Positions 2,438-36,343 of a DNA stretch of 41,774 bases are shown here, piece after piece. Every line of letters begins with the position of its first letter. Positions within the stretch are counted from its first letter, which is position 1. Under the pieces are notes generated by a model. That model ran no database searches and was not told the origin of the DNA. It worked only from the letters and a program-made list of their open reading frames with translations. The position numbers and the translations under genes are program-made. Location: the NCBI GenBank assembly GCA_003134215.1, contig PLAD01000145.1, positions 1 through 41,774 on the forward strand, given 5' to 3'. Source of the stretch: Armatimonadota bacterium. GTDB lineage: Bacteria > Armatimonadota > Armatimonadia > Armatimonadales > Capsulimonadaceae.

Positions 2438-5002
2438 CTAATATACCTGTCCTATTCCAGTATCAAGCCCTTGTCCAAACTGGCCGACTCCAAATGGTTC
2501 GTAACCTGGGAATGCCTTTAACCGGAAATTGAGATAAAAGGAACTGCCTGGAGCAAGGTTTTGGTCGTTGCTTTGGTAGATACCGCTCAGCTCCCAGTCA
2601 TGCCAGCTTCGCGTTACTTCCAATCCTTTGTAGGTGATCTGGTCGGTCAGTCCGTCATATCCGGCGAGTGCTCTAATCGTGTATCCTGCCTGTTCGCGTT
2701 TGTCGGTAATCCAGGGGACAACCAGGTCGCCGTTAACATTCGAGAACCGGGCCGACTGCGGCACATAGTTCAGCGCCGAATTGAACGCCAGACCCCACGG
2801 AAGGGTGACGCGCGTCGTGTCGGCAACATTGAAGAGCATTCCGCGGTTTGGGTCGTAGCTTCCAGTCAGGACATTTAAAAGCCGTTTGTCAATTCTGTAC
2901 TGGACCTGACCGTTGATATCGATCCAGGGAGTGCCCGGAACACCGTCAATTTCATGGTCGGCTCCAATGTCGAATCCGCTGGAGAAAGTGGCCTCGAACC
3001 GGTTCGTGGGCTGCAGGTTTAAATTGACATTGACGTTGTTATAGCTGCCGCTTTCGTCGAAAAGAAAGGGCGTATAGCCGTAAGGGCGCAAATAGGAGTA
3101 ATCAGCGCCAAAGCTTGAGTGCTTCTGAAAGCTATAAGTCGCTCCCATCTGGTTTTGTAAGATGTATTGCGCAGTATTATTGCTGTACAGCGACTGCAAG
3201 AACGAGCCGGAAAAGCTGGTGGTGACGGCCTTCGCTTGATGCTGGTTATTACCCAGGTCGAGGCCGAGCTGCATTCGCATGTCTTCGGCATTGTCCAGCG
3301 TCTCCTTGAAGTATCCGATGTCCAGTATATATTTAGAAAGCGCAGGCAGCAGTTGCGGCAGGAGGCGATCGGTTGTGGAAGGGACGCTTTGGACATTGAT
3401 CTCGGGAAGGCGCTGCACTCCTCCGCTGATCAGTCCACTCGAACCGGATGCCGATGCATTAAAGGTGTTGGTCAAGAGTTCGAGCTGATAACCCTTGGGG
3501 TGTGAAGTGATATCAAGATTGGTCGCGAGGGTCTGCTGATAAGTGCCGGCGGCGTCTCCGATGCCCGGAGTTCCAAATTGACTCAGGTTCAGTTTGAGGT
3601 CCATGTTCGTAATACTGGAAAGTGCGTTACTCTCGTCGAAGGAAGATGTAATCGTCCGCGACGTTCCGTCACCGTAATCGCTTTGCTGGACATTCGTGTT
3701 GAGTGTTGTCGAAGCGCCCCTCACTGCTCGACTGACGGTGAACAGTCCAGAAATTGCGTTCGATTGCCCCAAACTCGATTGGTAGGAATCGTTTTGGAAC
3801 TGCGTATCAACCGACAAGCGAACATTATGAAAAAGGAGCTGGTTGTCAGTGAGAGAACCGGTTGTAGTGTTCAGGCCGGCAGAGCTGTCATTCACATGAT
3901 AAATCTGCACTTGACCGCCATTGCCCGATGTCAAACCACTGGTTCCAGTGGCATACGACTGCCCGGCAGTCGAGATCGTCGGCCCGATTGTCGGTGCATT
4001 GCCGTTCGATTGTGCGCCGTTTCCCTTCCGCCCTCCGCCGGTGGTGAAGGATTGGGTGAGTCCTGTCCCAACGCCGGCCTGGGACATAAGGTCAAGTCTG
4101 AGAATTCCGACAGCCGAAGCCGCGAGGACATAAGGGACGGCAAATTTGGCGAAGTATCCTTCTTCCTGGTCGTATCCAACCTGGGGCGTTATTCCCTGAC
4201 GCGCATAGCGGTTGTCGAGGGGAAAGAGCAAATACGGAATAGTAATAACCTTGTGGTGACGGCGGTAGAGGGTCACATCACGCGCGATTAATCGTTTGCC
4301 GGGAATGATGATCGTACTCCTAGCCTTGAAAAAGTAGTGCGGGCTCGCAAAGTCGCACGTAGTCACCGAAGTGTCTCTCGCATCGATAAATCGCGGCGTG
4401 TCTTCGATGTCGCCGCCGTACAGTCTGATTGGGAGGGCGAGGCCGGTGAGTGATGGCAGATCCGAAGGTGCGATAACCGCTGAGCCTCCAATGACGTCGT
4501 AGACTCCGCTGCGCAGGTTGAGAGTGAGTTTGCTGTTTTTTGCCAGCGAGTTTACTACTACTTTTCCGTCGTCAGAGCGCAGTCTGACATTACCCGTAAG
4601 CGCTCCGATCCCGGTGTCCGTATTTATCGTTGCGTTATCGCAGTACAGCGTGTAAGTTCGATATCTGAGACTCACATTACCATTAACGGTTGTAATGCCG
4701 TCATTGTCCATCTGAGCGCTGTCTGCAGTTTCTAGTCCTATATCATTTGGCCCCAGTTCATCTACCGGCGGCTCAAACGCCGGTGGCGCGATTACAGATG
4801 TAGGTCCTAAAGGATTGGTCGGAGCGGCGGATACATGCTGAAGCGGCGGAATTTGCGCCTGGCTTGGGGAAGGCAGGCCGGGCGGAGTACTCGATGGTGG
4901 GTTTTGGGAAAGATCTGCAGCTGAATTCGCTGTCGAAGTTGTCGACTGTGCCATGACGGGAGATGCCGCTAGCAGAAGCATAATTCCGAGAAGCCGGTAC
5001 AC
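2438..5002 (-). CDS. lptD: LptD/OstA-like outer-membrane beta-barrel protein
   Basis: Signal peptide MYRLLGIMLLLAASPVMA-Q, then a Pro/Ser-rich linker. OstA-like N-terminal domain (TVNGNVSLRYRTYTLYCDNATINTDTGIGALTGNVRLRSDDGKVVV). A long barrel follows with alternating aromatic/hydrophilic residues and a C-terminal ...GIGQVY. Its start abuts the stop of the LptF/G permease gene (5002/5003). Confidence 0.6.
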   Translation of the reverse strand: MYRLLGIMLLLAASPVMAQSTTSTANSAADLSQNPPSSTPPGLPSPSQAQIPPLQHVSAAPTNPLGPTSVIAPPAFEPPVDELGPNDIGLETADSAQMDNDGITTVNGNVSLRYRTYTLYCDNATINTDTGIGALTGNVRLRSDDGKVVVNSLAKNSKLTLNLRSGVYDVIGGSAVIAPSDLPSLTGLALPIRLYGGDIEDTPRFIDARDTSVTTCDFASPHYFFKARSTIIIPGKRLIARDVTLYRRHHKVITIPYLLFPLDNRYARQGITPQVGYDQEEGYFAKFAVPYVLAASAVGILRLDLMSQAGVGTGLTQSFTTGGGRKGNGAQSNGNAPTIGPTISTAGQSYATGTSGLTSGNGGQVQIYHVNDSSAGLNTTTGSLTDNQLLFHNVRLSVDTQFQNDSYQSSLGQSNAISGLFTVSRAVRGASTTLNTNVQQSDYGDGTSRTITSSFDESNALSSITNMDLKLNLSQFGTPGIGDAAGTYQQTLATNLDITSHPKGYQLELLTNTFNASASGSSGLISGGVQRLPEINVQSVPSTTDRLLPQLLPALSKYILDIGYFKETLDNAEDMRMQLGLDLGNNQHQAKAVTTSFSGSFLQSLYSNNTAQYILQNQMGATYSFQKHSSFGADYSYLRPYGYTPFLFDESGSYNNVNVNLNLQPTNRFEATFSSGFDIGADHEIDGVPGTPWIDINGQVQYRIDKRLLNVLTGSYDPNRGMLFNVADTTRVTLPWGLAFNSALNYVPQSARFSNVNGDLVVPWITDKREQAGYTIRALAGYDGLTDQITYKGLEVTRSWHDWELSGIYQSNDQNLAPGSSFYLNFRLKAFPGYEPFGVGQFGQGLDTGIGQVY

Positions 5003-14870: not shown

Positions 14871-16229
14871 CTAAAGGGAGTTAAGATCGACTTGCTCCAG
14901 GCCGGGATTGACGAGAGGCTGCCGGCCGGTTTTTGCCAGGTCGCGCCAATTGCCGCTAACCTTGACACGGACTACGTCGGCGGTGAAGTCGTTGTTGGTC
15001 CCGATCTCGGCAGCGTTGCTGAAGAGATAAGATCCGACGCCGTAGACATCTACCGGCACTTGCTGGTCTTCGAATGCACGTATCTTAGCAGGAGTCAGGC
15101 CGCCGGTGACCGAAATCTTTATGGACTTACAGTACTCAGATGCCCGCTTCATCCACTCTGCTGGAAGATCCCACTGCCTATATGCGTTCGTCAGCGCCGA
15201 GCGGACTTTATGCACCAATTGTGGGTTTACGCCGTGTTCATCCGGGCTGTCGGACGGATAGAGGCTGTGGTCGACAAGCGTGCTCGATGTATCCAATCTC
15301 ACTCCGTACAACATATATTTGAGCGCTTCGTCGTTGTTCCCGCCCTCAATGAAACGTCGGTATTCCGTAAATAAGGCCTGCGCCGTTCTACAGGAATCGG
15401 TGACGCAGTCATTATTGAAGTCGACCAGGGCAATGCGCGGTATGCTGCGCGGAAGGACTCTCGCGAACGATCGCATGGCTTCGGCCGTGTCTCCAAAGAA
15501 ACAGGCGATGGCAGCGTGAGCGACAGTGCCGCCTCCGGCACCGCCCCACCAGTCGCCTTGTTCATCCGTGCTGACGGTAGAGACGATCTTCTTGCCGAAG
15601 GCATTGTTAAAGGCAAGCACGGCCGTATGGTAGGCGTATCCATCGGCTGCCTGTACTTCGTGAGCATCGAAACGGGCGGGAAAGAAGAGGACATCTTTAC
15701 CGCGAGCCGCCCGCAGCACTTCGTAGACATTGGTGGCGACACGAGTGCCACGGGTCAATGCACCCAGGGTAGGAGTTTCCAGCAGCGCGAAATCACGGTA
15801 GCGGCCGCGCACCTTGAGTATAGGAACAGCGCTGTCTTGTGAGCCCTCGTAGGTCGCGACGAATCCGTCGTGCACCGCTTCGACCTCCAGTTGATCGTAA
15901 GTGGAGTTCCACACTCCGTCACTGTCGAAAAAGCCCGTACACAACTTCAATATTGCGAGCACTTTGTCGACCCCGACGACAATGCTGAACGGCGTTCGAC
16001 GGGTAAACCATTGCATCTCTACGAAGAGATCGCCAACATTTACCGATGAGACATCGTCTGCATTGAGTAATGGGTGCGAGCCTGCAAAGACGTAATCCTC
16101 TTCGGAGAGACCGGCAAGAAGGCGAACGATATTCGTAAAGTATTTGTCGGAGTACCAGCCTTCGCGCATTCTAGCGGCGTCAAGTTTGAACGTCGCGGCA
16201 GGCAGCCGTTTGCCGTCAAAAATACTCAT
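14871..16229 (-). CDS. pncB: Nicotinate phosphoribosyltransferase family protein (type II PRTase)
   Basis: N-terminus ...REGWYSDKYFTNIVRLL... and overall length fit NAPRTase-type enzymes. It lies in an operon with nadE and shares an ATGA start/stop overlap with the upstream gene. Confidence 0.75.
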   Translation of the reverse strand: MSIFDGKRLPAATFKLDAARMREGWYSDKYFTNIVRLLAGLSEEDYVFAGSHPLLNADDVSSVNVGDLFVEMQWFTRRTPFSIVVGVDKVLAILKLCTGFFDSDGVWNSTYDQLEVEAVHDGFVATYEGSQDSAVPILKVRGRYRDFALLETPTLGALTRGTRVATNVYEVLRAARGKDVLFFPARFDAHEVQAADGYAYHTAVLAFNNAFGKKIVSTVSTDEQGDWWGGAGGGTVAHAAIACFFGDTAEAMRSFARVLPRSIPRIALVDFNNDCVTDSCRTAQALFTEYRRFIEGGNNDEALKYMLYGVRLDTSSTLVDHSLYPSDSPDEHGVNPQLVHKVRSALTNAYRQWDLPAEWMKRASEYCKSIKISVTGGLTPAKIRAFEDQQVPVDVYGVGSYLFSNAAEIGTNNDFTADVVRVKVSGNWRDLAKTGRQPLVNPGLEQVDLNSL

Positions 16230-17572
16230 ATTTCTCGGATGAGGCCGGTGATTCGGCCAACGACGCGCACTGTCGCGGAGAGCGGGGTTGTTGGAAACTT
16301 AGGATCGTCGGACACCAACATTTTGCTTTCGCCGTCAATGACAAGGCGACGAACTGTTTCATCTTTACCGTCGATCACCACAGCGACGAGAGATTGATCG
16401 ACTGGAGCCAGCGCTTCGTTGACGAATACCAGGTCGCCGGGCAAAACTCCACTGGCGTCCATGCTGCTCTCAGTAACTCGGAGAAGGTAGTCGGCGCCGG
16501 CTGACGGGAGTGCAATATCTTTCGCATCATCTGTGCCGCTTATAGGAAGGCGGGCACAGTCTACTTCGAAATGCAACAGGGGTTCCTTGACTCTCGCCTT
16601 CACCGCCGGCGTCTCTGGCGGGGCGTAGTCGTAGTCCCCTACATAAACATAGAAGTCGCTGGCCCTGGCGTTGATCTGGCCGACTCTCGCGGTGCTGATC
16701 GCCTGTTTCGTTTGGTTCAGTTTCGCGCTTAAATCGTCGCAAGCAGCAAGTATGAACGCCTCCGGAGTAGCCGGCGTCTTCGGTGAACCAAACTCCCCTT
16801 TACCGTGATGTGAAAGGATCAGGTGCATGAGTAGTTTTTTGAGCAGGGGAGGGAAGTCGGGTCCGATCGCACTTAAGATAGTTTGTGTTCCGAGGACAAT
16901 ATGGCCGATCAACGCTCCGTCTGCCGTGTATTCTCCATGTTTGATCCCATGCTCGAGCTCTTCGAGTTTGCCGATATCGTGCAGGAGTGCGCAGGTGACG
17001 ACCAGGTCTCGGTTGACGGTCGGGAATACCTCGCACATCTTGTCGCACATCTCGGCGACCTCGGTTGTATGCTCAATCAGCCCGCCTCTGTGCGAATGAT
17101 GCATCGTTTTAGCCGCTACAGCATCTCGAAACCGTCGCAGCATGTCGGTCGGTGTACCAAATGCGGTCCTCAATAACTGCTTAAGGTGCGAATTCTTTAT
17201 CGATTTCACCAGATGGATAAACCGATCGTAATGGACCTGGTGGTCGTCGGGCAACGGCGCAAGGAAGTTCTTAGGGTCGATATCCGATTCGGCGACCGGC
17301 TTGATCGACGAGACCGAGACCTGTCCGGAGTACTGGCCATTATCCACCTGACCGCTCATATAGAAGAAAGTGTTGGAAAGCAGGACCTGCTGAAGGTCTG
17401 GGGTGATGTTCCAAAGCTTGGCCGGAGCGCAACCAGTTCTGTCTTCGATGTTGAACATCGCGTAAGGATTGCCGGCTTTTCCCTGTTTGACTTCAGGGTT
17501 GCGCTCGACGAATAGAGAGTGTGAGAAGGAAGAACCCGGTGTCAGTTCCTCGATATATTTGCCTTTTTGCAT
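16226..17572 (-). CDS. YhaM-like OB-fold + HD-domain 3-prime-5-prime exonuclease fused to a C-terminal LexA/UmuD-type S24 domain
   Basis: Residues 1-290 align by eye along their length with B. subtilis YhaM: an OB fold, then HH...GGLIEHT, ALLHDIGK, LILSHHGKGEFGSPKTP and DDLSAKLN. Residues about 338-448 read YLLRVTESSMDASGVLPGDLVFV...VAVVIDGKDETVRRLV...VRVVGRITGLIR, which is the LexA C-terminal domain pattern. Confidence 0.8.
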   Translation of the reverse strand: MQKGKYIEELTPGSSFSHSLFVERNPEVKQGKAGNPYAMFNIEDRTGCAPAKLWNITPDLQQVLLSNTFFYMSGQVDNGQYSGQVSVSSIKPVAESDIDPKNFLAPLPDDHQVHYDRFIHLVKSIKNSHLKQLLRTAFGTPTDMLRRFRDAVAAKTMHHSHRGGLIEHTTEVAEMCDKMCEVFPTVNRDLVVTCALLHDIGKLEELEHGIKHGEYTADGALIGHIVLGTQTILSAIGPDFPPLLKKLLMHLILSHHGKGEFGSPKTPATPEAFILAACDDLSAKLNQTKQAISTARVGQINARASDFYVYVGDYDYAPPETPAVKARVKEPLLHFEVDCARLPISGTDDAKDIALPSAGADYLLRVTESSMDASGVLPGDLVFVNEALAPVDQSLVAVVIDGKDETVRRLVIDGESKMLVSDDPKFPTTPLSATVRVVGRITGLIREI

Positions 17573-27862: not shown

Positions 27863-29065
27863 TTAATCGCCGACGCTACCGGTTTGGGGTCGTCGCCCGG
27901 AAAGCGTTGCTGCAGCATCTGCGAGTTCGCGGTTGCCAACAACAGACATCACCTTAACGTCGTCTGCGAGTGAGTCATTTTCCGAAAGGAAACGAATTAG
28001 TAAATCAGGAGGAAGCCGGTCAACCATTCTCAATACGGTTTGAGTGAAGAACTTCTTGTTGATGGCTGAGGCAGTTAGGAATACATCGTCAATCCACTCA
28101 CGCCGTTGATCGGTTGACGATGGTCGATAGGAAAGTGGTCTACCAAACTTAATCATTTCGGCGGCAATCCTTTTGGTGTGGCGCTGAATGCGCGTAAATG
28201 CATATCCAGTCGATGGTTTCGCGGCGCCGCCTAATATACCGATGTAGTAGCGGCCTGGCGTGGTGCTGAACGGAAACTTAGTCGTTGTCATCGGTATGAT
28301 GCCGGTCTCCGTTGAGTGTACAGTGACGGATGACTTCACCTTCGTTTCGATATACCAATTTACGCGAGTCAGATGTTCGTCCGTCTCTTCCCGGTCTACT
28401 GAGATCAAAGTACTCTCGATTAACGCCGAGTTTTGTGAGTAAGGAAGAACGTAAATAAACGCGCCCTCGTTACCGTCAGGTACTCGAAAGTCCATGAGCG
28501 TCACGGCATCGGTATCAAAAACGTCTTTGGAAGTCGTAATAGTGAGTCCCGCGAACGATTGGTGAAGCCAGGGGGCTGCACTGTCAGACGAACCCGTGAA
28601 TCCTCTGAGGTTACGCGCATCGAAAACCAATTTTGCTGCAACATCTCCGCAATCCGTACCGATATTCCACACATGATTCGCCGGGTCCCGAGTCGTCTTG
28701 TGGACGGTAACTCCCATACGAAGGTAAAAGTTGTTTGCAGTGGACAGCTTCTCGCGGATCGCGTTGAGAAACGAAGGCGCAGACACCTGATAATATTTTG
28801 CCCCTGCGGGACGAACGAACTCTAATGAGCCGCCGGCGACGAGAAATTTTGACCACGTCTTAGACACGAATGGTGTTATGTCTTTGTCGATAGGGCCCCA
28901 GAAACACCAGCGTTGTTCACGATCAAAGTCGACGGCGCGTTCCAGAACGACGACGCTTCCACGATATCCGCCAAGCAACAGCCGGTAAGCCAGGCTCATA
29001 CCGGCGCATCCGCCGCCGAGTATGGCCGCATCCACTTGTCGTGGAAGATAAATTTGGTTGCTCAT
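27863..29065 (-). CDS. Lycopene cyclase (CrtY-type) family FAD-dependent protein
   Basis: N-terminal dinucleotide-binding motif DAAILGGGCAGMSLAYRL. Length and pattern are typical of the lycopene cyclase family. The substrate cannot be inferred from sequence alone. Confidence 0.65.
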   Translation of the reverse strand: MSNQIYLPRQVDAAILGGGCAGMSLAYRLLLGGYRGSVVVLERAVDFDREQRWCFWGPIDKDITPFVSKTWSKFLVAGGSLEFVRPAGAKYYQVSAPSFLNAIREKLSTANNFYLRMGVTVHKTTRDPANHVWNIGTDCGDVAAKLVFDARNLRGFTGSSDSAAPWLHQSFAGLTITTSKDVFDTDAVTLMDFRVPDGNEGAFIYVLPYSQNSALIESTLISVDREETDEHLTRVNWYIETKVKSSVTVHSTETGIIPMTTTKFPFSTTPGRYYIGILGGAAKPSTGYAFTRIQRHTKRIAAEMIKFGRPLSYRPSSTDQRREWIDDVFLTASAINKKFFTQTVLRMVDRLPPDLLIRFLSENDSLADDVKVMSVVGNRELADAAATLSGRRPQTGSVGD

Positions 29066-30576
29066 TTAGTTGCTGCGGCGGGCGATGAGGTCGCTGTTCG
29101 CTCAAAAATGTAGCCGTCGTTGAATGTCGATGCGAGCTGCATGCCGCACTGAGTAACAATTTGTTTTGGATCGAAGTTCGCCGGTTCGATCGCATTTGTT
29201 AACCAGATAACATAGCATGGGCCTTCGAGACCATTGATCCTGGCTACGACGTAAGCCATGCCTGGATTGTGCGTATCGTCGGCGACCCAACTCGAGACTT
29301 TATGTCCAATCAAATAGGTGGCTGCACTGTCATTGCTGTACAGGGGGTAGGCAAAGGCCGTCTTGCTAACATAGCTGAGGGTCGGCGATTGCTGCCAGGC
29401 AGGTGAGAGATAGCCGCCTGTTTTGATCTGCGCTGCCGTCAACGACTCTGCCGCGACCAGAAGGAAAAATGCTGTGGCGACTCCAGAGATGACCAGAGCA
29501 ATCGGTCTGATCATGATTGCACGCAGATATTCGATAAACCCTATCGCTGTCAGAATGAGTGGGACGAACAGCGGCGAGGTTAATCTGTCATCTATCATAT
29601 CGATGTTGTAGTTCGCCGAAGAGAAAACAATCATGAAAGCGTAGATAGCAGCGAATAGTGGTGCTGAGCGCAAATACGGAGAGTCCGTCTCCCGTCGCGT
29701 AAGCAGCCAAATCGCCAAGCCAATCGCGGCGGCGCACGCAAGTATTATCGCAAAAATCGGCTGTACCATAGCTGCACCCAGGCAGTTCCAGAGGGAGTTC
29801 AAGCAATCGCTTATCGAACTCGTTCCAGGGTTTCGCTGTCCCATCATGGTGCCGCTGTAGTGTTTGTTGATCAAACACCAGACCGTAAGAGGCGTCAGTG
29901 TGATCATAAGAAACAATGCCCCGTGCAGCAGTCGCTTACCGAAAGTCAGCGTCGGACAAATCAAAATCGAAACAAGCAAAGCGGCAACGACTGAAACTCC
30001 AATATATCGGGTCATGCAGCACAGCAGTGCAAAGAGAGCTGCGGGAAGAAAATAAAACAGGCTGCTTCGCTCTTGATATTGTCCGACAAAATAGATGCTT
30101 AACAAGCTGAGAGGAATAAACAGCGTTTCGGAAAGTCCAGAGTTCGCAATGTTCGTCAGCGGTACGGACAATGCCAGTGCAATCATGACGCCGCATCGCA
30201 ATGCGGCGCTTCTGGTCAATTTGAAAAGAAGAGCATTGGAAACGATGAGTGTACCGGCTAAGCATATTCCTCCGACAACTCCCAGCGCCTTGATGGCCTG
30301 CCCATGCAAAAGCATCTCTACAAGGCCAAAAACAAGGGGATAGAACGGCGGCCAATCGCTGCACCAGTTACCGCTAAAATCGGAGAAACCTTGTCCGTTC
30401 CACACGCGATCCCCTAATGACATGTAACCAACAGAGTCAGGCTCAATGAAGAAGTGACCGTGGAAAGCATGAATGATCGGACGAACCGATGCGAAAACTA
30501 TAACGCCGGCCACAATAAGATTGGAAAAAAAGTGCGTTGTTTGAAAACCGGTGTCTTCGTCTTCTTCTATGCTCAA
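29062..30576 (-). CDS. Polytopic membrane protein, GT-C-like glycosyltransferase candidate
   Basis: More than 10 TM helices. The first loop reads FIEPDSVGYMSLGDRVWNG, with an acidic motif as in ArnT/PMT-like enzymes. Its stop overlaps the lycopene-cyclase-family start (ATGA). Confidence 0.45.
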   Translation of the reverse strand: MSIEEDEDTGFQTTHFFSNLIVAGVIVFASVRPIIHAFHGHFFIEPDSVGYMSLGDRVWNGQGFSDFSGNWCSDWPPFYPLVFGLVEMLLHGQAIKALGVVGGICLAGTLIVSNALLFKLTRSAALRCGVMIALALSVPLTNIANSGLSETLFIPLSLLSIYFVGQYQERSSLFYFLPAALFALLCCMTRYIGVSVVAALLVSILICPTLTFGKRLLHGALFLMITLTPLTVWCLINKHYSGTMMGQRNPGTSSISDCLNSLWNCLGAAMVQPIFAIILACAAAIGLAIWLLTRRETDSPYLRSAPLFAAIYAFMIVFSSANYNIDMIDDRLTSPLFVPLILTAIGFIEYLRAIMIRPIALVISGVATAFFLLVAAESLTAAQIKTGGYLSPAWQQSPTLSYVSKTAFAYPLYSNDSAATYLIGHKVSSWVADDTHNPGMAYVVARINGLEGPCYVIWLTNAIEPANFDPKQIVTQCGMQLASTFNDGYIFERTATSSPAAATK

Positions 30577-30724
30577 ATCAGCTCATTGACATCGGCAGCT
30601 TCGCCTCGCAATATCCTCCTGGCAGCGTATTGTCAAGTATCGTTGTGCAACAGTGTATTATACAACCAGTGGAGCAGAGAAGCTATCGAGTAATCTTCAG
30701 AGCTACCCGTAGAGGCGATCCTGG

Positions 30725-31555
30725 GTGACGTATAACGTGAAGGCAACCGAGCATACCGGCTCTCATCAATCTCGTGAAAGAGATCGGAAACCGTCGAGCC
30801 TGCCTGGCTACCGGCACGATCCCATCGTTTACCTTCAGTTTTCCGAGTGCATTCGGCTCCCGCCGAGCCGTTTACTTGATCGACTCACCAGCCGCTGGAA
30901 CGATACCGCCAAGATTAAAGAAGAGACACTGGTCATGCTTGCGCGCGAATACAGTCGGTGTGGAAATGACGGGCTAGCTTGGAAGCTGGTCCTTGCGATC
31001 TGCGAGCGTGTTCAGCCCAGTATAGAGCGCTCAATTAAGCTTTGGCGACTTCCGCCTCATATGGCGGACGAGCTTGTCGAATCCCTGGTGGCGGGCATGT
31101 ACGATGCTGTATTGAATAACGGTGAGGCAGGGGCTTTCTGGGAAATAAAATTCTGGGTCTGTTTTGAACGAAGACTGCTCAGCGCCCTCAGGAAATACCG
31201 CCAACTTTCTGATCGCGGCTTTGAGTCGGAGACTGCCGACGAAGGACCTCAGTCACTGCTGGAATCGACTCAGGAACGACAAAGCGAATGGAAAGACCCG
31301 GCGATGAGGGCGGTTATTGCCGATGGTCTCGCGCAGCTTCCTGAAACACTTCGAACGGCGTTCATGCTGAAGCATTGGGCCGGTTTTGCCGAATACAGCT
31401 CCGATCCATCCGAACGCTTTACGATCGCTCATGTTATGGGCGTCTCTTCCAGGACGGTCCGCAATTACCTTATGCGTGCGGAAGTACTCCTTAATGAATG
31501 GCGTGAGGGACCGACGGATGCGCGGAACAGAGTAGGAGAGCAAGATGGTCGATGA
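30725..31555 (+). CDS. Divergent ECF-like sigma-70 family protein
   Basis: Region-2-like segment ADELVESLVAGMYDAVL...FWEIKFWVCFERRLLSALRKYRQ. Region-4 HTH LPETLRTAFMLKHWAGF...IAHVMGVSSRTVRNYLMRAEVLL. Start is uncertain: GTG at 30725 gives a 70-aa N-terminal extension, while ATG at 30935 gives about 206 aa. Confidence 0.6.
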   Translation: MTYNVKATEHTGSHQSRERDRKPSSLPGYRHDPIVYLQFSECIRLPPSRLLDRLTSRWNDTAKIKEETLVMLAREYSRCGNDGLAWKLVLAICERVQPSIERSIKLWRLPPHMADELVESLVAGMYDAVLNNGEAGAFWEIKFWVCFERRLLSALRKYRQLSDRGFESETADEGPQSLLESTQERQSEWKDPAMRAVIADGLAQLPETLRTAFMLKHWAGFAEYSSDPSERFTIAHVMGVSSRTVRNYLMRAEVLLNEWREGPTDARNRVGEQDGR

Positions 31556-32174
31556 CGTGAAGCCCGAACGGTCGGACCTGGCGCTTTTATCACTAGACAG
31601 CCTATTGGAAAGCGGAAACTCGATAGAAATGTCTTTGGCCGAAGCAGTCAAGTTGTTTCCTGATCAGTCAGCGGTACTAACTGATGCGGCTCTGCTGCGA
31701 AAGTTCGAAATGTGCGACGCGACAACGGACATGAGTATTTCTGAACTCGTCTCAAATGCGATCGGTCGGACGGCGGCAGCGAGGCGGCCAAAGCCAATTG
31801 CTAAGCTGGTCGATTCTGTTAAGGCCGTCGGACTTAAAACGTCGGACATTGTGAGCCATCTCAAAATCGGTACTTCGATCTTCATCAAGCTGGATCGCCG
31901 AATGATCGAGCCTGCGAGCATTCCTGACGAGCTGCTGTCATCACTCGCAGATCAGCTTTACGAGCCACTGGATAGACTTCTTGAATATCTAAGTCGCCCA
32001 GCAACTGCTTCCAGCGCAGTCACTTTCAAAGCCGACGAACAGCCGTCTGTAAAGCCCAAAGAAACTTTTCGGGCAGCTCTCAATGCTAGTCTAACTGCCG
32101 ACCACCTGGATAAATCCAGCTATGAGTACTGGCTGAGCATGGTGCAAACCGAAGTCGAGCAAGAGGGCCGGTAA
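31545..32174 (+). CDS. XRE-like helix-turn-helix protein (possible repressor / anti-sigma partner)
   Basis: ATG overlaps the sigma gene by 11 nt. The central segment IAKLVDSVKAVGLKTSDIVSHLKIGTSIFIKLDRRMIEPASIPDELLSSLADQL follows the XRE HTH pattern. The flanks are of unknown family. Confidence 0.5.
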   Translation: MVDDVKPERSDLALLSLDSLLESGNSIEMSLAEAVKLFPDQSAVLTDAALLRKFEMCDATTDMSISELVSNAIGRTAAARRPKPIAKLVDSVKAVGLKTSDIVSHLKIGTSIFIKLDRRMIEPASIPDELLSSLADQLYEPLDRLLEYLSRPATASSAVTFKADEQPSVKPKETFRAALNASLTADHLDKSSYEYWLSMVQTEVEQEGR

Positions 32175-32176
32175 AC

Positions 32177-34576
32177 GTGCACACGGAAGACATTCGGGCG
32201 CGACTGGCTGCAAGATATTTCCGTTCCACACTGAAAAGTCAATATTTGGATTCCCTCGTATCCGCTGAGACTTTGCTGGCTGATGCAGAAAGAGTAACCG
32301 GAATTAGGCGATCGATATTGCCTGGCGGCGATCCTCTGCTGTCCGGCGCACACGCATTACTCGACCGCGAATTCAATACGATTTGGCTGAGCGCTGACCG
32401 GCCGCCAGTATTACGACTTTCTGATGCCGCTCATGAGTTCGGGCATGCAGTGATGCATCAACATAACGCAATTTCTAGTCTGGATGAAGACGACGAGTCG
32501 CTTGCCGGATACTCAAAAAATCAACGGGATGAGGTGGATGCCCACCGGTTTGCCGCTGAATTCCTGCTCCCTCTCGACCTGTTAAAATCCAGATTTCTAG
32601 CAGGTGACAGTCTCGACCTTATTGCCGATACCTGCTGTGTAGCGCGTAAATTGGCGCTAAAGCAGCTCATTACCGCCTTTTCCTCTGAAGACGAGCTTCT
32701 GAGAAAGCTGTCAAATGAGCCGGCGCCTTGCGACTCTTGGCAACATGATGCGGCGCATTCAGCCGGGCCGTGCTTGGTTTGCGGTGCGTCCGGTACAGGG
32801 AAGACGACGACCTTAATCGAACGGTGTCGTGTTCTAATCGAACGCGACGGTACATCGGCAGCCGAGATCCTGGTCGTCGCCCACAGTAAACGTTCAGCAG
32901 CATTGTTAAGAGACTCCCTGGCGAGCGGAGGAAACCTATTGCTGCACCTTGTTCCAGTAGCCACACCTTATCAGCTTGCTTATGACCTTGTGGTTCGATT
33001 TCCTGAGGCTGCTGGACTTGACGTCCGTTGGGAAGAGTCCTGCGGGGGAGACCAGTTGACGCCGAGCAGGATGCTGGAACTTGCCAATGAACTTTTTCAG
33101 AGCATAGCAGCCCCGCGTGAAAGATACCGTCACATACTAATTGACGATTTCGACAAGTTCAATCTTGAGTCACTCCAGTTTATCGCGAAGATGGCCCGAA
33201 ATCAATCGCCTGTATTCTGGGCGGCCGCGTCCCAAACAAACGAAAAACAAAGCAAGAAGTTGTTCACCAGTTTGTTTGAAGGTGAACCGTCGGCCAATAA
33301 GGTTCAGATTCATTTTCTTCCGTTCGAGTACCGGTCTTCAACCACATTATTCAACTTTCGCCGGCTAATCAATCCGCCCGACAGCCGTCGCGAAATTTCC
33401 CGTCGGCCGTTCAGCGATCGATGTGGACCCGGTTCTATCACCCTTTCGGTTTCCAGAGACTTCAATGAAGTTGCAATAGGTGTCGCAGACTATGTCGAGA
33501 AAAAAGTGAAATCGGGTTATGCGCCTGAAGACCTTGTCGTTTTAATGTCGGACAACACGACAAAAAATGCTGCGAACCGTGATAAGCTGGCGTCCGTTCT
33601 TAACGGTATCTCAGTTGCACGCTCTCGAAGAACTCCGGTTTTGGATCTTTTGGCCATTGTTCAGCTTTGCTTTGGCCAATTCAGCCTCGCGACGATAGTT
33701 CGAGCTGCGACTCTCCCAGGTTATCGAAGTCCCATTCGGGAGATACTGGAATACTGCAAGAGCAGAGAGGCAGGAGAGGATGTCAAAGGGAGGACTTGGG
33801 GACGCGGCTTGACCAAATGCCTGGACGATATTCGCCGATGCCGGTCAACCGGAACGCCGAAGGATGCGCTGGTCAGGTACTTGTTCCAAGTTTCGGACTA
33901 TCTGAGAACAACAGTTGATTCCAATCTGGCTGTCGAATATTTGCTCAGGCATTTACCCGATGATCCGGCGCAGTTATCCGATTTTTGCGGGAGCCGCCGG
34001 GCTGTCGTCCGCGAAAGCTTTCCTTCATATGGCGAGTCTATTGAGATACATATAGTATCACCCTTAAGGTTTGCCGGACGCCATGTTCCGATCGTCATAG
34101 TAGTAGGCACTGACCTGGCACGATTACAAAAATTGGTGACAGGGAAGGGGAAAGGTGAATTGCAGAATGTACCGAGATCCGCCGAAAGCGTCGCGGCTGA
34201 GAGTGCGGACGATCATCTCGTATATGCTTACTATTCAAGCGATCCAGAGAAAGCGATCGGTGCGGCCGGCCGAATGGCGCGTTTGGTGCCAGAACTTCAG
34301 ATTGAATCGTGGGCTGAAACCTCACTGCGGCAGGTCAACGCGTATAAACTCACGCGGATAGACAGCGATGGACTGGCGCAGGACGAGATTTCTCTTCACC
34401 ATCAATGCCCGAGGCGGGTCTACTACCGCCGCATCCTTGACCTCGACACACAAACTTCTAGTTATGCCTACATTCATAACAGCGACTGCTCTGATCGATT
34501 TCCCCCGATTCCAGCCGATAACGCGCTCTGTTTGTCGTGCCGATATTCGGAGATTTGCCCGATCGAACTTTACTAG
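32177..34576 (+). CDS. ImmA/IrrE (COG2856) zinc-metalloprotease domain fused to a UvrD/Rep-like SF1 helicase domain, with a Cys-rich C-terminal tail
   Basis: GTG start is 2 nt after the previous stop. HEFGH at 32432-32446, followed by EVDAHRFAAEFLLPLDLL (ImmA/IrrE signature). Walker A GPCLVCGASGTGKTT (32783-32806), motif Ia-like ILVVAHSKRSAALLRDSL and motif II variant ILIDDFDKFN. The tail is CPRRVYYRRIL...CLSCRYSEIC. Confidence 0.75.
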   Translation: MHTEDIRARLAARYFRSTLKSQYLDSLVSAETLLADAERVTGIRRSILPGGDPLLSGAHALLDREFNTIWLSADRPPVLRLSDAAHEFGHAVMHQHNAISSLDEDDESLAGYSKNQRDEVDAHRFAAEFLLPLDLLKSRFLAGDSLDLIADTCCVARKLALKQLITAFSSEDELLRKLSNEPAPCDSWQHDAAHSAGPCLVCGASGTGKTTTLIERCRVLIERDGTSAAEILVVAHSKRSAALLRDSLASGGNLLLHLVPVATPYQLAYDLVVRFPEAAGLDVRWEESCGGDQLTPSRMLELANELFQSIAAPRERYRHILIDDFDKFNLESLQFIAKMARNQSPVFWAAASQTNEKQSKKLFTSLFEGEPSANKVQIHFLPFEYRSSTTLFNFRRLINPPDSRREISRRPFSDRCGPGSITLSVSRDFNEVAIGVADYVEKKVKSGYAPEDLVVLMSDNTTKNAANRDKLASVLNGISVARSRRTPVLDLLAIVQLCFGQFSLATIVRAATLPGYRSPIREILEYCKSREAGEDVKGRTWGRGLTKCLDDIRRCRSTGTPKDALVRYLFQVSDYLRTTVDSNLAVEYLLRHLPDDPAQLSDFCGSRRAVVRESFPSYGESIEIHIVSPLRFAGRHVPIVIVVGTDLARLQKLVTGKGKGELQNVPRSAESVAAESADDHLVYAYYSSDPEKAIGAAGRMARLVPELQIESWAETSLRQVNAYKLTRIDSDGLAQDEISLHHQCPRRVYYRRILDLDTQTSSYAYIHNSDCSDRFPPIPADNALCLSCRYSEICPIELY

Positions 34577-34930: not shown

Positions 34931-36343
34931 TTAGGCGGCGAGTGATGCCTGGCCGTTGGGTTGACGGGGTGCAGTTACTGCCTTGATAGCATGGATGCAC
35001 TCTGCATCGAGTGCAATGTCCGCGTCCTTGTCGATAATCTCAAATACTCGTTCGAGCGGCATCGCATCTCGGTAAGGCCGTTTCGCGGACAGAGCATCAA
35101 AAACGTCCGCGACAGCGACGATACGCATATCCAAATCAAGCTGCTCCGCACTCAACCCCTGAAAATAGCCTTTGCCGTCAAGGCGTTCATGATGCGCCCC
35201 GGCAATTGCGGAGATGCGGGAGAAGCCGTCAATCTTTCCGAGTATCTGCGCCGAATAGTAGGGATGTTTTTTGATTGCAGCCCACTCGTCGGGTTCTAGT
35301 TTTCCTGGTTTATCCAAAATAGTGTTTGGGACGCCAAGCTTGCCGATGTCGTGAAGTAGAGATGCGCGCCGCAGAGTAACCAGTCGATTGCCGGTTATAT
35401 TCATATACTGAGCTATCTCAACCGAATATCTGCAGACGCGGAATGAGTGAGCGCCGGTGAACGGTGACTTCGCATCGACGATTTCCGCAAATGCATTACA
35501 CACAGCATCTATTCGATCGTCGGTGGCGTCCTGTACAGCAGCTCTGCAGTCTAGAGCAAGGAGTGCACGTTCAGGTGAGCTTTTGAGGTCGTCCCAAAAT
35601 TGAGAATCACTTTGAAAGGCCGTCGAAGCCCTGACCATTTCCGGGTCAAACCATCGTCCAGAACGTTTATTGATTATCTCGTAGGCGGTATTGCGGTCGA
35701 ATGTACACGAGAAGACCTCTAGATTTTGGGCGAGGGCGGCAACACGGCTGAGCAGGGGAATTTGCTCGCGTGACAGGTGATTTGGAGATCCGGTTCCGTC
35801 CCACCGCTCTTCAAGTGAGGCGATGCAGTCCGCAGACTCCTTGCCCATACCGAGTGATAACGCAATTTGCGCTCCGCGGTTGCACCTTGTTTCCGAAAGC
35901 TCATCCGTGTTGCCCGAACCATGGGCTGCGACATCTACCATTTTCTTTGCGCGCTCGAGAAAGGAGCCCTTTGGCAATGAACGCGCTACGACGTATCGGA
36001 CGCATTCGGCGAGATTATTCCAGTCGGTAACGCGCGAAAGGCGTTTACTTTCGATATCGTCGCCGCCGAAGATCTCGTACATGCGGGCTGCATTACTGGA
36101 GCAGCCTGAGTCCTTGAGCAGGAGAGCAAAATAGAGATCTGTGATTTGCTGTTCGGATAGTTGGAGCTCGCGCGCAAGGCGGACGCCGATAAGACATGTG
36201 CGCTGCGCATGCCCCATCGAGTAGCCGCTCGTTAGATCGAGGGCATAACTGAGCGATGACAATATTTGAGAGAAATTGAGTACCGCGGGGTGCTGATAGT
36301 GCTCGTCAGATTCGTTGGAATTTATCGGTCCTGATGTCGGCAA
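34931..36343 (-). CDS. Tandem HD-GYP-type phosphohydrolase (degenerate N-terminal module plus an apparently intact C-terminal module)
   Basis: C-terminal module: HSFRVCRYS...LLHDIGKLGVP...KHPYYSAQIL...GAHHERLDGKGYFQGL. N-terminal module: GHAQRT...LLLKDSGCS...LEERWDGTGSPNHL (HD to KD, HHE to LEE, GYP to GSP). Apparent TTG start. Confidence 0.82.
   Translation of the reverse strand: MPTSGPINSNESDEHYQHPAVLNFSQILSSLSYALDLTSGYSMGHAQRTCLIGVRLARELQLSEQQITDLYFALLLKDSGCSSNAARMYEIFGGDDIESKRLSRVTDWNNLAECVRYVVARSLPKGSFLERAKKMVDVAAHGSGNTDELSETRCNRGAQIALSLGMGKESADCIASLEERWDGTGSPNHLSREQIPLLSRVAALAQNLEVFSCTFDRNTAYEIINKRSGRWFDPEMVRASTAFQSDSQFWDDLKSSPERALLALDCRAAVQDATDDRIDAVCNAFAEIVDAKSPFTGAHSFRVCRYSVEIAQYMNITGNRLVTLRRASLLHDIGKLGVPNTILDKPGKLEPDEWAAIKKHPYYSAQILGKIDGFSRISAIAGAHHERLDGKGYFQGLSAEQLDLDMRIVAVADVFDALSAKRPYRDAMPLERVFEIIDKDADIALDAECIHAIKAVTAPRQPNGQASLAA

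Follow-up and report, generated by a model that had tools for sequence, protein, structure and literature searches.

A sigma factor, a small partner and an M78 protease-helicase fusion: a candidate transcriptional switch for bacterial immune operons, present in reduced form in an Armatimonadota genome

How toxic immune operons stay silent and are then switched on is an active question. To our knowledge, three types of regulator are known at CBASS (cyclic oligonucleotide-based antiphage signalling system), Bub and Bil loci, and all of them de-repress. The closest described relative of the locus considered here is CapH/CapP, which regulates CBASS, DISARM and ubiquitin-like operons, the protease CapP being activated by single-stranded DNA (ssDNA) to cleave CapH (Lau et al. 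2022). A sigma factor is encoded beside capH/capP in 24 CBASS systems, the nearest published remark to what we report (Lau et al. 2022). At Bub operons, a 2026 CapK/CapS paper (PMC13373217) names CapW, CapH/CapP and CapK/CapS as regulators, and a term search of it returns no mention of a helicase or of an M78 protease. In this study, we explored a three-gene locus in a 41,774-nucleotide stretch (hereafter the window) from an Armatimonadota bacterium of the Capsulimonadaceae (contig PLAD01000145.1), in which a sigma factor gene, a gene for a small partner and a gene for an M78 protease fused to the remnant of a UvrD-like helicase-nuclease follow one another. On balance, and with moderate confidence, we read this trio as a sigma-based transcriptional switch for immune operons, not as a defence system itself. 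An earlier note on this DNA had not recognised the combination as a characterised system, and full-text searching of one literature library found no description of a sigma/partner/M78-helicase trio; the family is widespread and apparently undescribed. The three open reading frames (ORFs) are:

30725-31555, plus strand: ORF1, 276 aa, GTG start
31545-32174, plus strand: ORF2, 209 aa, ATG start, overlapping ORF1 by 11 nt
32177-34576, plus strand: ORF3, 799 aa, GTG start, beginning 2 nt after the ORF2 stop

These coordinates, the 11-nt overlap and the 2-nt gap came out with the same values on re-reading the window ORFs. The sigma and ORF2 genes stand directly upstream of the M78-UvrD gene in every locus examined, that is, the window, L001-L006, L007/8, L009, L010/11, L012-L016 (hidden Markov models of ORF1 and ORF2), L021-L024 and L026, the L025 contig ending just upstream of ORF3; in all of them the ORF2 gene sits between the other two. 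Loci picked by ORF2 alone, from Xanthomonas arboricola (L027) and Burkholderia pseudomallei (L028), carry the same trio. Thus the test that the earlier note had set itself, whether homologues of ORF3 are consistently flanked by sigma and partner genes, turned out in its favour at each locus. In 8 relative loci (L007/8, L021, L022, L024-L026, L027 and L028), hosted by Variovorax, Pelomonas, Xanthomonas, Burkholderia and several metagenome contigs, BilABCD follows directly downstream on the same strand (PADLOC: BilA 6e-57, BilD 2e-172). In L010/11, the trio and a Bub-type operon (Multi_ubiq/E2/E1-JAB/BubE) are transcribed away from each other, with an integrase adjacent. Most proteobacterial loci and related metagenome contigs follow one of these two patterns, the trio preceding BilABCD or facing a Bub operon, and in L010 and L022 it lies in islands with integrases and other defence genes.

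At the level of sequence, the best indication that the trio controls its own genes as well as the immune operon beside it is a motif shared between the two. The Bil cassettes hold TTCCGATTTC-N10-TGCGACTTA (core TTCCGA-N16-CGACTTA) in exactly two copies, one ~70 nt upstream of the sigma gene and one in the gap between ORF3 and bilA. The core is non-palindromic, always oriented with the genes, and has ECF-like (extracytoplasmic function) spacing. In L022, which has a different sigma lineage, TTTTCG-N16-GGCTTG takes its place at the same two positions. Such sharing between the sigma operon and the cargo operon implies that the trio would drive its own operon as well as the immune operon. Together with the neighbours conserved at every M78-UvrD locus examined and the Bil/Bub linkage, the common motif bears out the switch proposed in the earlier note. 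From Burkholderia to Xanthomonas, a third copy of TTCCGA-N16-CGACTTA, which departs from the motif at 1-3 positions, is embedded in the 3' end of bilC, right ahead of bilD, and suggests an internal promoter for the E1-like gene:

L007, 10815-10843: third motif copy in bilC
L021, 11814-11842: third motif copy in bilC
L024, 11814-11842: third motif copy in bilC
L027, 14530-14558: third motif copy in bilC
L028, 14456-14484: third motif copy in bilC

The 5' leader of bilA (CATGAGCAGCGCATCCCGCGCAGCTCACC...), in the motif-to-bilA gap (L007 9373-9427, L021, L024, L027, L028), is nearly identical between Xanthomonas and Burkholderiales cassettes; it contains inverted repeats, though imperfect ones, and could act as an operator or fold into a structured RNA.

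Not all of the cis-elements look alike. The divergent Bub-sigma intergenic region of L010 (4243-4479) holds three copies of GTCACGCCTTTRCATA, facing both operons, two of which form a perfect 16-bp inverted repeat, 11 bp apart. In the window and its close relatives, the upstream element is of another kind:

30652-30663, plus strand: conserved element AGTGTATTATAC, holding the small palindrome GTAT-N-ATAC and resembling an extended -10 box

Each locus has one copy of the related block GAGTATCATAC/G, immediately before the leading plus-strand gene, which is the sigma gene in L005, the amidase gene in L006 and the epimerase gene in L001-L004; in the window, the GAGTATCATAC-type element is single-copy, with 0.5 expected by chance. 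Judged from this placement, AGTGTATTATAC may function as a promoter-like element. A generic promoter and terminator scan of the window gave no excess over shuffled sequence. In L001 (~3000-3600), and also in L004, the gap ahead of the epimerase gene, itself located before the sigma gene, is filled by about three tandem copies of a ~170 bp unit (GCCGCGACTTCAGTCGACGGAAGACGGCC...).

Such elements raise a second reading, in which ORF2 would be a DNA-binding repressor like CapH, ImmR or DdrO, the cis-element its operator and ORF3 the protease that cleaves it, the sigma factor adding specificity; we judge this unlikely, though it deserves to be weighed with care. A perfect 16-bp inverted repeat as a shared element is typical of operators, the GTAT-N-ATAC palindrome of the window subfamily overlaps the -10-like box, and CapH/CapP systems with an extra sigma factor exist. 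The Bil motif, on the other hand, is bipartite, non-palindromic and in a single orientation, keeps an ECF-like N16 spacer and varies with the sigma lineage (L022), all of which argue for a promoter. The nature of ORF2, discussed below, bears on the same choice.

By its sequence, ORF1 is an ECF-type (group 4) sigma factor, with regions 2 and 4 present and regions 1.1 and 3 absent. It matches Pfam Sigma70_r4_2 (30.2 bits against a cut-off of 25.7) and scores 28 bits, under the cut-off, with TIGR02937; Sigma70_r2 was not detected in the window ORF1 with Pfam alone. A profile of 15 ORF1 homologues aligns with E. coli sigma-E (1or7 residues 23-187) through regions 2 to 4 (E 1e-12), and it is this alignment, with the Sigma70_r4_2 match, that places ORF1 in the ECF type and supports the region 2 and region 4 signatures given in the earlier note:

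~31136-31174, plus strand: sigma region 2 core in ORF1
~31421-31483, plus strand: sigma region 4 helix-turn-helix (HTH) in ORF1

An N-terminal extension of ~70-90 aa is conserved among the homologues. The NCBI gene call for ORF1, at 206 aa, is 70 residues shorter than the ORF and leaves out 30725-30934; given that the missing stretch is conserved in homologues (from ~residue 29), the longer product is more likely correct.

ORF2 is the most elusive of the three. Its family falls into at least 215 clusters when cut at 90% identity and 697 when cut at 50%, almost all of them 200-230 aa long, and the window protein has no match in Pfam, NCBIfam, PADLOC or PHROGs, with no HTH_3 or HTH_31 signal in any of these libraries. 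Neither an HTH_3 nor a capH match appears at E up to 1, and the ORF2 profile finds no match among PDB sequences. The earlier note had placed a central XRE-type HTH in ORF2, and part of that claim finds an echo: hhalign sets ORF2 in register with the N-terminal domain of SinR (P 0.0018, probability 15%), and a Foldseek search of the PDB with the AlphaFold model of a Variovorax homologue (predicted local distance difference test, pLDDT, 75) returns mostly XRE-type domains (CapH N-terminal domain, DdrO, SinR), none of them significant (best E 0.19). The lack of a significant Foldseek match and the poor model of the window protein keep the HTH call weak, and the library and PDB sequence searches lend it nothing. 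Two features can nonetheless be marked on the sequence:

31818-31958, plus strand: possible XRE-like HTH in ORF2, from the SinR hhalign alignment and the non-significant Foldseek list
~32043-32081, plus strand: conserved C-terminal P..ETF..A motif in ORF2

For the repressor reading, the weak fold matches to CapH, DdrO and SinR and the in-register SinR alignment count in favour, and the missing HTH_3 or HTH_31 signal in every library searched counts against. So does gene position, since a gene directly after an ECF sigma gene and translationally coupled to it stands in the canonical anti-sigma position. ORF2 is thus best kept as a candidate anti-sigma factor and/or repressor and a candidate protease substrate; in the switch that we favour, it would be the anti-sigma factor and would be cleaved by ORF3.

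The protease half of ORF3 is far easier to place. It matches Peptidase_M78 (PF06114) over residues 61-144 (E 4e-10, 39.9 bits against a cut-off of 22), PADLOC capP at 6e-11 and the PDB structure of CapP, 7t5t, at E 2e-4; the IrrE structure 3dte is among the PDB matches of the ORF3 family profile (E 3e-4). The features of this half are:

32342-32671, plus strand: M78 (ImmA/IrrE/CapP-type) protease domain, residues 56-165
32432-32446, plus strand: HEFGH zinc site
32531-32572, plus strand: E..AHRFAAEFLLP block

In an alignment of the window protein with 22 homologues (23 sequences), H86, E87, H90, Y112, R117 and E119 are invariant in 23/23. Judged from these residues, the M78 site is intact, with the HExxH and the downstream Glu that the family requires, and the ImmA/IrrE-like start that had been proposed for ORF3 is secure in both the Pfam match and the position of HEFGH. 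M78 is also the best-conserved part of the protein within the window subfamily (45-56% identity). Residues 166-185 form a short linker only, and from residue 186 onward the protein is helicase-like; the helicase therefore stands where CapP and IrrE have a GAF-like sensor domain, and the GAF-like domain that follows M78 in the CapP architecture is absent from ORF3.

The second half keeps the start and the end of a helicase-nuclease. Residues 192-274 match the N-terminal UvrD-helicase Pfam model (E 5e-12, above cut-off), so that both of the profile matches which the earlier note had asked of ORF3, Peptidase_M78 and UvrD, were obtained; UvrD_C and PDDEXK_1 found no Pfam match in the window protein. 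Against PDB UvrD, window ORF3 alone aligns over 57 residues (E 3e-5), and a wider-family profile, dominated by full-length members, aligns with PcrA over ~650 residues (E 1e-132). Members of the wider family indeed measure ~1100 aa and combine M78 with PDDEXK_1 and a full UvrD helicase. The full SF1A (superfamily 1A) motif set of UvrD/PcrA/Rep, with the 1B and 2B domains, is found in these full-length relatives and not in window ORF3, where the following remain:

32732-32755, plus strand: Q motif DSWQHDAA, Q189 invariant in the alignment
32783-32806, plus strand: Walker A GASGTGKT, with G206, G208, K209 and T210 invariant
33140-33157, plus strand: degenerate Walker B / motif II, IDDFDK against a family consensus VDEYQD, the catalytic Glu lost
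33326-33340, plus strand: motif IV remnant EYRSS, in which only the Arg survives
34403-34558, plus strand: Cas4/AddB-type four-Cys motif, C744 in QCPRRVYY, then C785-X2-C788-X5-C794

Motif II is equally degraded in the subfamily relatives (DDIDI in P0001, DNFDE in P0002 and P0003), and motif III, motifs V and VI (THxSKGLEF, SRAR) and the 1B insertion are missing from 4/4 subfamily members in the alignment. The UvrD/Rep-like ATPase previously suggested for ORF3 therefore stands as regards its Q motif and Walker A, the latter at the position first given, and falls as regards the rest, which is a degenerate remnant. The four Cys (C744, C785, C788, C794) are invariant in 23/23 sequences, with a weak PADLOC Cas4 match over residues 771-796, and the PD-(D/E)XK core between the first Cys and CX2CX5C is deleted, 40 residues being left against ~190 or more in full-length relatives. 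Within the subfamily, identity is 37-46% in the P-loop and 39-52% in the Cys region, against 16-32% in the rest of ORF3.

These losses also bear on whether the locus might be a self-contained anti-phage system, with ORF3 as an effector attacking phage DNA. In full-length relatives, some of them in islands with integrases and other defence genes (L010, L022), the UvrD helicase is complete and a PD-(D/E)XK nuclease is present, and the helicase domain resembles GajB. The window protein, however, lacks the nuclease core, the Walker B Glu and motifs III, V and VI, which leaves no effector. PADLOC v2, run on the trio, recognises ORF3 by domain-level matches only (capP, RmrA and a weak GajB), likewise in the full-length relatives, and ORF1 and ORF2 fit no PADLOC system or model. 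Moreover, the locus lies in core synteny instead of an island, and the sigma factor, with its motif repeated before the Bil genes, points to regulation. We thus regard a self-contained defence module, which the earlier note had left open, as very improbable.

The genomic setting sets the window copy apart from most of its relatives. Between 12091 and 41594 every other long ORF is on the minus strand, so that the trio is, as first described, the sole plus-strand block there; the remaining plus-strand ORFs of at least 150 aa in this interval all overlap longer minus-strand ORFs. Base composition is flat across the locus. Its neighbours in the window are aro genes, lycopene cyclase, YCII, HD-GYP and sedolisins, and none of BilA, BilB, BilC or BilD is found among the window genes; the relatives stand at the promoter end of an immune operon and the window trio does not. 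ORF3 has only three close relatives, of ~790 aa and 30-36% identity, in whose contigs the sigma and ORF2 genes are collinear. The gene order of the window is common to at least 4 diverged genomes, the window included: aroB, aroK and aroC lie upstream of the trio in 2/4 subfamily genomes and YCII lies downstream in 3/4, HD-GYP and two sedolisin-like genes being shared too. This shared order indicates a core, vertically inherited locus, and the variable island envisaged in the earlier note is not where the window copy lies. Homologues of aroC that carry organism names assign the window, part of a metagenome-assembled genome, to Capsulimonadaceae-like Armatimonadota. Identities between the subfamily genomes are as follows:

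aroC: 85%
HD-GYP: 70-75%
Sigma (ORF1): 50-55%
ORF2: 29-34%
ORF3: 30-34%

The window copy could on these grounds be a decaying, functionless relic of a Bil- or Bub-type cassette that has lost its cargo. Its helicase motor motifs, 1B domain and nuclease core are gone, no cargo genes lie nearby, ORF2 and ORF3 have drifted apart far more quickly than the genes around them, and intermediate reductions exist, with ORF3 at 1156 aa (L009), 1025 aa (L023) and ~790 aa (here). Yet decay sits poorly with three ORFs that remain intact and collinear in at least 4 genomes despite divergence (in all four subfamily genomes, aroC being 83-85% identical), with an invariant HExxH, Walker A and four Cys, with protease, P-loop and Cys segments conserved 2- to 3-fold better than the rest of ORF3, and with conserved translational coupling and upstream element; we hold a functionless relic to be improbable. 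What we would propose instead, from the same comparisons, is that the window copy is a vertically inherited, reduced derivative of the switch, without cargo, which keeps the protease site, the P-loop and the four-Cys motif.

Intermediate forms without recognisable cargo are the same ones in which ORF3 measures 1156 aa (L009) and 1025 aa (L023), and the declining lengths towards the ~790 aa of the window suggest a stepwise reduction. L006 (2137-3582), L009 (2549-3976) and L023 (4094-5512) each have, immediately before the trio and in the same orientation, an amidase-signature gene, the three being orthologues (62-67% identity). As cargo, the amidase was set aside: it is absent from the window, L001 and L005, and is more likely old synteny, though it may also be a lost co-regulated gene. 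In L015 (13313-16134), three same-strand ORFs (178, 189 and 451 aa), without Pfam match, come right after a full-length trio and could be unrecognised cargo.

How, then, might such a switch work? A DNA signal, ssDNA or DNA ends arising from damage or infection, would be bound by the helicase-nuclease part; binding would activate the M78 protease, which would cleave ORF2 and so free the sigma factor to transcribe its promoters. What we propose on ORF2 (cleavage and an anti-sigma role), on the kind of signal and on the regulon is modelled on CapH/CapP, ImmR/ImmA, DdrO/IrrE and the proteolytic release of ECF sigma factors. A helicase as built-in DNA sensor, an idea of the earlier note, is plausible, and in the window it would have to act without translocation. 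The window copy would then probably be a non-translocating sensor-protease, comparable to the dead-helicase ssDNA scaffolds AddB and RecC, and its trio would control a sigma regulon outside the window.

Several observations weigh against this model. The repeated motif could be an operator instead of a promoter, as the 16-bp inverted repeat of L010 illustrates, and the upstream element of the window subfamily resembles a -10 box of the housekeeping kind instead of an ECF promoter. Hexamer pairs from 30577-30724 recur elsewhere in the window at equal spacing at chance level only. Searches of ORF2 against Pfam, NCBIfam and PDB profiles recognised no anti-sigma domain, the AlphaFold model of the window protein is poor (pLDDT 48), and support for its HTH is weak. 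The helicase part of ORF3 has degenerated so far that it may no longer bind DNA. No cargo genes were found in the flanks of the window trio, and the fast divergence of ORF2 and ORF3 (29-34%, against 56-85% for neighbours) could reflect relaxed constraint.

If the switch is real, it adds a route of activation through a dedicated sigma factor to the regulation of immune operons, and provides a testable promoter motif for many BilABCD cassettes, including those of Burkholderia pseudomallei and Xanthomonas. That the sensor would be a helicase-nuclease fused to a protease points to DNA ends or unwinding intermediates as the signal, and not merely to free ssDNA. The interest lies mainly in the family thus revealed, of which the window holds a reduced, cargo-free version. 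Having shed its enzyme activities after cargo loss and kept the protease, the P-loop and the Fe-S ligands, that copy would mark the minimal sensing core, and its trio may be the sign of a new regulon for DNA stress in a phylum that has been little studied. Overall, we put forward, tentatively and as a possibility on which we would not yet rely, that the trio represents a fourth class of immune-operon regulator, next to CapW/BrxR, CapH/CapP and CapK/CapS, which activates by way of a private sigma factor set free by a protease under the control of a DNA-processing enzyme module, and that in Capsulimonadaceae-like Armatimonadota it was co-opted as a chromosomal stress regulator with a dead helicase/Fe-S scaffold as its sensor.

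A few further observations concern the surroundings of the locus. A divergent 504-aa multi-pass membrane protein without Pfam match is encoded at 29062-30576 on the minus strand, ~150 nt separating its start from ORF1, and also adjoins the trio in L005 and L006 (40-48% identity). An HD_5 (HD-GYP-type) protein lies near the trio in the window (34931-36343, minus strand) and others occur in L014 (14363-17263, minus strand) and L006 (1-41); L014 is an Armatimonadales metagenome-assembled genome with a full-length ORF3, and the proximity of HD_5 may reflect shared synteny or a link to cyclic-di-GMP signalling. Elsewhere in the window (16226-17572, minus strand), a 448-aa ORF joins an HD phosphohydrolase domain (E 2e-13) to a C-terminal LexA-like Peptidase_S24 (E 8e-12), an unusual fusion that, by its domains, could be another damage-responsive, self-cleaving protein. 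Rfam and tRNA scans of the window found only a tRNA-Leu, at its end.

Set beside the known systems, the trio comes closest to CapH/CapP. Both have an M78 protease and a small partner encoded beside it, the relatives of the window trio stand, like CapH/CapP, at the promoter end of immune operons, ubiquitin-like ones included, and the expected logic, from DNA signal to proteolysis, would be the same. They differ in that CapP, of ~290 aa, ends in a GAF-like domain in the place where ORF3 has a UvrD/AddB-like helicase-nuclease; CapH is an HTH_3 repressor with a C-terminal oligomerisation domain, whereas ORF2 is not detectably HTH_3 and has no capH match. Unlike in CapH/CapP, the sigma factor is obligatory in the trio, the cis-element is promoter-like instead of a palindromic operator, and the window copy has no immune operon. 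ImmR/ImmA of ICEBs1 and DdrO/IrrE(PprI) of Deinococcus share with it COG2856/M78 proteases that cleave a neighbouring regulator upon DNA damage; their substrates, however, are clear XRE proteins, neither system has a sigma factor or a helicase fusion, and the window shows neither a mobile element nor a regulon of the RDRM (radiation/desiccation response motif) type. With RpoE-RseA (DegS/RseP) and SigW-RsiW (PrsW/RasP), the trio has in common an ECF sigma factor of the sigma2-sigma4 layout, a coupled downstream partner and a dedicated protease, and its relatives add a bipartite motif with one copy before the sigma operon. In contrast to those pairs, the partner is cytoplasmic and shows neither a zinc motif nor any anti-sigma domain that can be recognised, the operon itself supplies the protease, a cytoplasmic M78 enzyme joined to a DNA-enzyme scaffold, and the sigma factor bears an N-terminal extension.

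The helicase-nuclease half resembles AddB and RecC, with a UvrD-like fold and a C-terminal C-Xn-CX2CX5C, and window ORF3 keeps Walker A and the Cys with the motor motifs lost. AddB likewise retains Walker A without motor activity. Nevertheless, AddB keeps an active nuclease and partners AddA in recombination, whereas ORF3 has neither the nuclease core nor a partner helicase, and carries an N-terminal protease. Finally, CapW/BrxR and CapK/CapS occupy the same niche, upstream of Bub, Bil and CBASS operons, and sense DNA damage or ssDNA (PMC13373217). The proteins themselves are unrelated, CapW/BrxR being WYL repressors and CapK/CapS a GHKL kinase with a STAS-winged HTH partner, and they work by de-repression, not through a sigma factor.

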